Shown piece after piece: positions 21,595 through 21,795 of a stretch of DNA of 56,031 nt (positions within the stretch are counted from its first letter, which is position 1; each line of letters starts with the position of its first letter). The DNA comes from a virus (taxonomy: Duplodnaviria; Caudoviricetes): positions 1-56,031 of the IMG/VR virus record IMGVR_UViG_3300025653_000045; one strand, 5' to 3'. The position numbers and the translations under genes were made by a program. Under the pieces are notes generated by a model. That model was not told the origin of the DNA. It was given only the letters and a program-made list of their open reading frames with translations, and did no database searches.

Positions 21595-21646
21595 GGTACA
21601 CTGATGAGTCCTCAATGGACGAAACACCCTTCGGGGTGTCTGTATC
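21595..21646 (+). ncRNA. Hammerhead ribozyme 1 (type I)
   Basis: Stem I GGTACA/TGTATC, CTGATGA, stem II GTCC-tcaat-GGAC, GAAA, stem III CACCC-ttcg-GGGTG, GTC cleavage triplet ending 21640. Confidence 0.93.
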
Positions 21647-21647
21647 A

Positions 21648-21795
21648 GACATACTGATGAGCGCTGAATGCGCGAAACACCTTCGGTGAAATCGAGGATA
21701 GCTACCTCGACGTAACCAACGCTCCATCCCGTATCACGTGTAAGCCACGGGTCACTGCTGGGTCGCTGACGCAGGGGGCAGAGGGTGTCTATGTC
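21648..21795 (+). ncRNA. Hammerhead ribozyme 2 (type I) with large insert in stem III
   Basis: Stem I GACATA/TATGTC, CTGATGA, stem II GCGC-tgaat-GCGC, GAAA, stem III ACACCTTC/GAGGGTGT, GTC ending 21789. Confidence 0.87.

Follow-up and report, generated by a model that had tools for sequence, protein, structure and literature searches.

The window, that is, the whole stretch of DNA analysed here (56,031 bases), is IMG/VR record IMGVR_UViG_3300025653_000045, a complete-looking phage record with a completeness estimate of 92%. It encodes a portal, a large terminase, a primase/helicase and a ribonucleotide reductase. Up to about 19,750, the minus strand carries the structural genes; small ORFs without known family then form a plus-strand block from about 20,500 on, ahead of the replication genes. 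Judged by gene order alone, it is reasonable to regard this small-ORF block as early, i.e. expressed at the start of infection. Near-identical DNA was present in 15 freshwater metagenome runs, and blastn of positions 20500-24500 gave no match among GenBank phages. On the minus strand, a 3041-aa ORF (37732-46857) showed a sole family match, phrog_586 of unknown function, over residues 1938-2056; an N4-like identity of the phage, guessed from this ORF, was unsupported by that only match and was dropped.

Two recurrent elements accompany the small ORFs. The motif CAAACTTCAA has 7 exact plus-strand copies between 20744 and 24970, each shortly 5' of a start codon, and 18 matches with at most one mismatch were counted in the whole window (6.0 expected). 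No Shine-Dalgarno-like sequence was evident at these sites, and the motif is probably a translation leader. A long hairpin, with arms of about 8 bp and an 11-nt loop within TATATAC...GATATAC, occurs three times on the plus strand (21338-21385, 22581-22642 and 24586-24692) and in several copies in relatives. Every copy stands just 5' of a CAAACTTCAA leader. Its possible functions are those of a phage promoter or of a site for RNase III-type processing, with a positional role like that of the hammerheads.

The cassette formed by the hammerheads HH1 and HH2 is located 1-2 kb into this block. No promoter or terminator was found inside the block when 21020 to 22641 was searched. Ribozyme anatomy, cut sites, conservation, structure-preserving substitutions and modularity were read from the sequence and from comparison with related loci. 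The features are as follows.

21432-21587, plus strand: upstream small ORF of 51 aa, no family; homologs in 10 viral loci
21595-21646, plus strand: HH1, compact type-I hammerhead, read from the sequence; identical or covarying copies in relatives
21640-21641, plus strand: putative HH1 cleavage site GUC/U, from hammerhead rules
21641-21789, plus strand: predicted released RNA of 149 nt, equal to the DNA block missing from L007 and L013; no conserved ORF
21648-21795, plus strand: HH2, type-I hammerhead with a branched cargo domain in stem III
21685-21780, plus strand: stem-III domain of 96 nt, branching as a three-way junction beyond the 8-bp stem III (RNAalifold on 8 units; pair counts)
21692-21710, plus strand: hairpin P3.1, 6-bp stem and 7-nt loop with self-complementary UAGCUA, AGCU invariant
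21720-21780, plus strand: Y-shaped module, also hammerhead-free in L013, L042 and L049
21720-21725 with 21775-21780, plus strand: 6-bp closing helix of the Y module
21728-21731 with 21748-21751, plus strand: hairpin A of the Y module
21735-21740, plus strand: palindromic loop hexamer of hairpin A, CACGUG here and CCUAGG or ACUAGU in relatives
21755-21758 with 21771-21774, inner helix 21762-21764 with 21768-21770, plus strand: hairpin B of the Y module
21789-21790, plus strand: putative HH2 cleavage site GUC/U, from hammerhead rules and the L004, L005 and L006 orthologues
21795-21804, plus strand: CAAACTTCAA leader motif ahead of the downstream ORF
21816-21977, plus strand: downstream ORF of 53 aa
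22189-22237, plus strand: HH3, compact type-I hammerhead, predicted cut 22231/22232

HH1 has the complete anatomy of a compact hammerhead. Its stem I is formed by GGTACA (21595-21600) and TGTATC (21641-21646), its core by CTGATGA (21601-21607) and GAAA (21621-21624), and its stem II (GUCC/GGAC) by 21608-21611 and 21617-21620. Stem III pairs 21625-21629 with 21634-21638 across a UUCG loop, and the GTC ends at 21640. HH1 would form the end of the mRNA of the 51-aa ORF. In HH2, GACATA (21648-21653) and TATGTC (21790-21795) form stem I, the core lies at 21654-21660, and stem II (GCGC/GCGC) pairs 21661-21664 with 21670-21673. The 8-bp stem III of HH2 joins 21677-21684 to 21781-21788, so that C17, the last base of GTC, is 21789. 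CTGATGA, GAAA and GTC are present in HH1, HH2 and HH3, in agreement with the hammerhead core CUGAnGA ... GAAA and its NUH cleavage triplet, and all three ribozymes lie on the plus strand in intergenic gaps. The window contains the hammerhead core pattern 3 times (0.25 expected), a count reached by none of 100 shuffles. HH2 and HH3 bracket two small ORFs (21816-21977 and 21974-22198), and the HH1-HH2 pair brackets no ORF.

None of these hammerheads reached the Rfam gathering score (Rfam 15). A permissive search gave 32.8 and 20.6 bits for RF00008 (versus 48.5) and 22.7 bits for RAGATH-1-hammerhead (versus 56.3). The 96-nt insert of HH2 is not accommodated by the Rfam hammerhead models. The best RF00008 match (32.8 bits) is an alternative reading, which combines the HH2 core with the GGGGUGUC strand of HH1, takes a short hairpin at 21641-21653 as stem I and points to the HH1 cut site. 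The orthologous compact hammerheads in L004, L005 and L006 have an identical HH2 core, a compact 5-bp stem III and a 3' side reading ...GTGTC followed by TATGTCAAACTTCAA; past the GUC they continue with UAUGUCAAACUUCAA, as HH2 does. Because these orthologues carry the same core and 3' side, the downstream site can be taken as the true cut of HH2.

Relatives were collected through the 51-aa ORF (10 loci) and by pattern, and each has one or two compact hammerheads at similar positions. In 15 distinct compact copies, 7 of the 15 stem pairs vary on both sides, compared with 0-1 for slid partners. These copies were picked by a pairing filter, so their 100% pairing is not independent evidence. Three helices with an open stem I and support from covariation were found, as expected of type-I hammerheads of Rfam clan CL00010, and by this sequence comparison the hammerheads of the window are a real, evolving family in these phages. 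Between homologous genes, intergenic hammerheads are gained and lost across the relatives. A contig of the DNA run X2 (depth 84) connects 21629 with 21783 through 5 other letters. This join is a compact hammerhead of a co-occurring relative, with an HH1-like 5' half and an HH2-like 3' end, which shows that these ribozyme halves recombine in the population.

The first-pass annotation had claimed that two hammerheads 1 nt apart would release 21641-21789 by double cleavage, and that this fragment has no credible ORF. Both statements were borne out. A21647 is the sole base between the stem I strands of HH1 and HH2, and the predicted cuts fall at 21640/21641 and 21789/21790, so double cleavage would yield exactly 149 nt. 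By hammerhead rules, the HH1 cut would give this RNA its 5'-OH end and the HH2 cut its 2',3'-cyclic phosphate end. No frame was free of stops across all 7 units in which coding was checked (L048 was excluded from the 8 units because it is near-identical to L044). A minus-strand ORF of 95 aa (21541-21828) was rejected: it is open in the window alone, and each of the 6 other units examined interrupts it with 1-2 stops. Three RNA runs gave one contig each, all outside 21600-21817: X16 covers 21346-21599, X17 covers 22023-22190, and X18 covers 21300-21420 and 21845-21879. The X16 and X17 contigs end just before a hammerhead core. Since DNA unitigs break at the same repeats, these contig ends are uninformative on cleavage.

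The fragment corresponds to a DNA cassette. L007, L008 and L013 have the upstream ORF, HH1 and the downstream 53-aa ORF as in the window, with the leader directly after HH1. Alignment gave a clean block of 149 columns present only in the window and L044, and a gap in L007 and L013 with the same flanking genes. An imperfect direct repeat of 13 nt, GTCTGTATCAGAC and GTCTATGTCAAAC, bounds the block. This repeat consists of the two cleavage-site and stem I sequences, and the relatives keep a single hybrid copy of it. The RNA predicted to be excised thus matches what is gained or lost as DNA, probably via recombination at the repeated ribozyme ends. The DNA run X2, an independent sample, has 21618-21823 unchanged. 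A transposon-like element with a GGTG duplication was also considered for the insert and dropped, as the domain is conserved and structured.

Further copies of the cargo were sought in the metagenome with a degenerate pattern from the part of the insert that resembles L013, and 12 loci were returned. Seven of them (L040, L041, L044, L045, L047, L048 and L050) have a hammerhead with the same stem-III domain. Four have the distal part without a hammerhead (L042, L049, L043 and L051, the last two repeating L013), and the match in L046 was judged to be chance. The domain is single-copy in the window. An exact 26-nt piece of it had no match in IMG/VR. A degenerate pattern of hairpin B matched 15 stretches in IMG/VR, 14 of them in unrelated, coding-looking sequence and rejected, and the sole related one was L018 (the L013 contig). 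The pattern of hairpin A was absent from genome_contigs and matched only L018 in IMG/VR. The pattern of the stem III 5' strand gave one match, L052, which was judged to be chance, its surroundings being without hammerhead features. The covariance model R1, run on 32 sources (215,112 bases), returned the known copies only and one 14.8-bit match counted twice (L004/L034).

The 8 cargo units (the window and 7 contigs) have a mean identity of 93%, which limits their independent variation. An HH1-type ribozyme lies 1 nt upstream in 6 of the 8 (5 contigs and the window). The loops of HH1 stem III vary among units while the HH1-HH2 junction stays invariant. In L040, a tRNA-like hairpin ends 8 nt upstream of the domain-bearing hammerhead, in place of HH1. 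In L045, the domain is carried by an HH1-type scaffold with a matching stem I; the 70 nt upstream of it contain no processing element, and the domain would therefore remain on the 3' end of the upstream message. The genes downstream of the unit differ between loci (by inspection, unaligned).

L040 has a second cargo hammerhead at 1157-1321 on the minus strand. This ribozyme combines an HH2-type core with a 9-bp stem III around a 115-nt insert, which is unrelated to the stem-III domain and has no homologue among the loci compared. After this ribozyme come a hairpin, a tRNA-like element and, last, the domain-bearing hammerhead. This second cargo hints that stem III serves as a cargo slot more generally.

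RNAalifold was applied to the 8 cargo units with no structure supplied, and it recovered the full hammerhead together with a three-way junction of two arms, one a 3-bp helix with P3.1 and the other a 6-bp helix with hairpins A and B. In these units 99.4% of cells pair, compared with 35-54% for slid partners. Changes on both sides of a pair were seen in stems I and II only. The changes in the domain are one-sided, with C/U opposite G or G/A opposite U. From this comparison, about 96 nt of the 149-nt fragment is a conserved branched domain within stem III of HH2. No Rfam 15 model overlapped 21685-21780 at E up to 10, and none was credible on the hammerhead-free copies.

The distal part of the domain, the Y module, also exists without a hammerhead, between tRNA-like hairpins, in L013, L042 and L049. 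Over 11 sequences (7 distinct), 99.3% of cells of the module pair, compared with 32-47% for slid partners; the structure was drawn from the same sequences on which it was counted. Its G-U pairs assign the fold to the plus strand. Between the hammerhead and the hammerhead-free modules, compensatory changes were found at 5 of the 6 closing-helix pairs and at one pair of hairpin B, a difference that may represent one evolutionary event. The alignments thus portray the Y module as independent of the ribozyme. The hexamer of the hairpin A loop (CACGUG, CCUAGG or ACUAGU) is always palindromic, with all 3 mirrored positions changed on both sides and 100% pairing. This is a self-complementary apical loop kept by compensatory change, as in a kissing loop, and the covarying palindrome suggests loop-loop pairing between two copies of the RNA. 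Within the 56-kb window, CACGTG occurs once, in the hairpin A loop, against 12.5 expected. Across the window, palindromic hexamers were strongly depleted (CACGTG 1, CCTAGG 4 and ACTAGT 1, versus 12-15 expected from base composition), consistent with restriction-site avoidance.

The folding energy of the released fragment was not exceptional (z -1.78; 9 of 200 shuffles equally good). In its lowest-energy fold, the 5' tail is paired with the CUGAUG core of HH2, so misfolding could limit HH2 cleavage. Taken together, the structure-preserving changes, the second ribozyme scaffold and the reuse between tRNA-like hairpins argue that the domain is a functional RNA.

The tRNA-like settings were also searched for tRNA identity. 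ARAGORN called no tRNA at the flanks of the hammerhead-free Y modules, and Rfam tRNA-Sec gave them 14-22 bits against a threshold of 47, so a tmRNA or true tRNA identity was rejected. The window itself has a non-coding stretch between two tRNA-like hairpins at 24288-24610 (plus strand), with T-loop-like GTTCGAATCC at about 24338 and GGTTCGAATCC at about 24587; the GGTTCGAATCC region scored 21.8 bits with tRNA-Sec (threshold 47). Its flanks are homologous to L013:5471-5592 and L013:5780-5885. The middle of about 225 nt has no homologue in any locus; the matching middle in L013, L042 and L049 is the Y module. This stretch looks like a second small-RNA slot with exchangeable cargo. In L013:4044-4198 (plus strand), a compact hammerhead is followed by two small hairpins and a tRNA-like gene, which ARAGORN reports as 'tRNA-???' with a 2-base anticodon and Rfam tRNA scores at 38.8 bits. 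These post-cleavage hairpins are also present in L040.

We hold with moderate confidence that 21641-21789 is a ribozyme-delimited cassette for a structured small RNA, and that the 149-nt RNA is the intended product and acts in trans. The small early-type gene block would be transcribed as a single RNA. HH1 would cut it at 21640/21641, and HH2, its stem III expanded with the 96-nt domain, at 21789/21790. Three products would be generated: the upstream message, the 149-nt RNA with a 5'-OH and a 2',3'-cyclic phosphate, and a downstream message beginning just 5' of its CAAACUUCAA leader. The working part of the 149-nt RNA would be the distal Y module, whose self-complementary apical hexamer probably pairs loop to loop with a second copy; as a stable structured molecule, the RNA probably works in trans, most likely through binding of a protein. 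That the cuts occur in vivo, that the fragment accumulates and dimerises and that it works in trans is what we infer here, and the claim stays modest until the 149-nt RNA is detected.

Excision looks to be under selection: 6 of 8 units are preceded at 1 nt by an HH1-type ribozyme, and L040 by a tRNA-like hairpin. A processing element thus lies directly 5' in 7 of 8 units and the 3' cut always belongs to the ribozyme hosting the domain, so the simplest reading is that an RNA of about 149 nt is made deliberately. A unit that is conserved, structured and modular also argues for the RNA as a product rather than a by-product. The excised non-coding RNA proposed in the first-pass annotation therefore held as a discrete, conserved, structured unit bounded by two ribozymes; that most of the fragment is HH2 itself with its stem-III domain had been missed.

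Alternatively, the hammerheads may only split a polycistronic early RNA, with the domain acting in cis by tuning the folding and cleavage of HH2 or by protecting a 3' end, and the 149-nt piece degraded as a by-product. The hammerheads of the window and its relatives are all intergenic and just 5' of a CAAACTTCAA leader, which fits such message processing, and Perreault et al. 2011 (PMC3088659) propose the same role for prophage hammerheads. The domain-bearing ribozyme that stands alone behind a gene in L045 and the alternative fold that ties the 5' tail to the HH2 core also agree with it. However, one hammerhead suffices for separating two cistrons, and here 6 of 8 units have a second one at a distance of 1 nt, always with the same junction. 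Moreover, the Y module is also found without any hammerhead, and the differing downstream genes argue against gene-specific control. We consider processing alone a possible explanation, though an unlikely one. Another view is that the block is a selfish or neutral cassette without function, which spreads or persists by recombination at the repeated cleavage-site and leader sequence. The imperfect 13-nt repeat around the block, its single hybrid copy in relatives and the coming and going of intergenic hammerheads between homologous genes speak for this view. It accounts poorly for the substitutions that keep structure throughout the domain, for the reuse of the module in a second hammerhead scaffold and in a ribozyme-free setting, and for a palindrome that is avoided elsewhere in the window and kept here, and we find it quite improbable.

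A circular working form, serving for example as a decoy, was weighed in the same way. Its 5'-OH and 2',3'-cyclic phosphate ends would be joined by host RtcB or by the reverse reaction of the ribozyme. By hammerhead rules the end chemistry is suitable, and according to Cervera & de la Pena 2020 (PMC7229834), RtcB efficiently circularises hammerhead-released monomers of 170-400 nt in vitro. A joint between 21789 and 21641 would restore a hammerhead in which each of the three stems is closed, and the Rfam type III model scores the equivalent linear arrangement, with the GGGGUGUC strand of HH1, at 32.8 bits (E 1e-4 in a 2-kb search). In contrast, stem I would be restored only as a weak hairpin of 5 pairs with one mismatch, the rebuilt ribozyme would cut again, and the same predicted structure is 6.6 kcal/mol less stable as a circle than as a linear RNA. 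No RtcB, RNA ligase or reverse transcriptase was found in the record (92% complete), RVT_1 included. The RNA-run contigs do not reach 21600-21817 and show no junction, and in its hammerhead-free tRNA-like setting the module has no ribozyme ends. Perreault et al. (PMC3088659) sought circular products of clustered phage hammerheads and found none. The junction string put forward for such a search, GGGTGTC followed by TGTATCAG, also occurs in the linear genome at 21634-21648 and so is not diagnostic of a circle. We regard the circle as the working form as highly unlikely, and a decoy role for the fragment is pure speculation.

The preferred reading, a released structured small RNA, can be extended. 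These ribozymes would mature a new family of small structured RNAs, with stem III as the cargo slot and the other end trimmed by a second ribozyme or a tRNA-like element. The RNA of about 150 nt would dimerise via its palindromic loop(s), may be circularised by host RtcB, and would act in trans early, e.g. by titrating a host defence or RNA-repair protein. We put this extended version forward tentatively and think it unlikely in its entirety.

The function of bacterial and phage self-cleaving ribozymes is a long-standing open question. The locus offers a testable alternative, in which a cargo-bearing hammerhead and a second ribozyme release a discrete non-coding RNA, and the same cargo in relatives sits in a tRNA-like excision context. 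It also brings out a phage RNA motif that had not been described before, whose self-complementary loop covaries.

Processing of the tRNA type is known to release small stable RNAs, for example those of the phage T4 tRNA cluster. The Y module of the relatives resembles them in having tRNA-like hairpins on either side, as though RNase P and RNase Z cut it out. Unlike in T4, these flanks are merely tRNA-like, and the excision device of the window is a ribozyme pair. The HIV-1 DIS is a kissing-loop dimerisation site with a palindromic hexamer loop. Similarly, hairpin A has an apical loop with a 6-nt self-complementary sequence that varies yet remains self-complementary. The loop here is larger (16-19 nt), its context is unrelated, and dimerisation is a prediction from the sequence.

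The usual guess for bacterial and phage ribozymes is message processing, which has little direct support according to PMC6765202. A mouse hammerhead with a very large loop, mentioned in PMC3088659, likewise combines a long peripheral-arm insertion with a canonical core. That ribozyme is eukaryotic, whereas HH2 has its insert in stem III, with sequence and structure both conserved, and this insert recurs in two ribozyme scaffolds. Perreault et al. 2011 (PMC3088659) describe clustered hammerheads flanking genes in prophages and phages, propose message processing and raise circular or spliced products as a possibility. The window is similar in having several same-strand intergenic hammerheads in a phage transcript, with HH2 and HH3 bracketing two small genes. 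It differs from those clusters in that HH1 and HH2 enclose no gene and are separated by 1 nt, that the RNA between their cuts is conserved from contig to contig, and that HH2 carries a conserved 96-nt branched domain in stem III.

Metazoan type-I hammerhead retrozymes give circular RNAs of 170-400 nt according to Cervera & de la Pena 2020 (PMC7229834). They share with the phage unit the type-I hammerheads, a similar unit size between the cuts and RtcB-joinable ends, which are predicted in our case. By the same text (PMC7229834), retrozymes are multi-copy tandem repeats of one unit moved by reverse transcription. In contrast, the phage unit is single-copy, has two different ribozymes and no reverse transcriptase, and belongs to a DNA phage. 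The retrozyme analogy drawn in the first-pass annotation fails for a single-copy unit in a record without reverse transcriptase. In the literature searched, no phage hammerhead pair bracketing a conserved non-coding RNA was found, nor this stem-III domain; the supplementary alignments of the papers might contain related variants. Clustered phage hammerheads as such are already known. The locus is also a natural counterpart of engineered ribozyme-flanked RNA expression cassettes.
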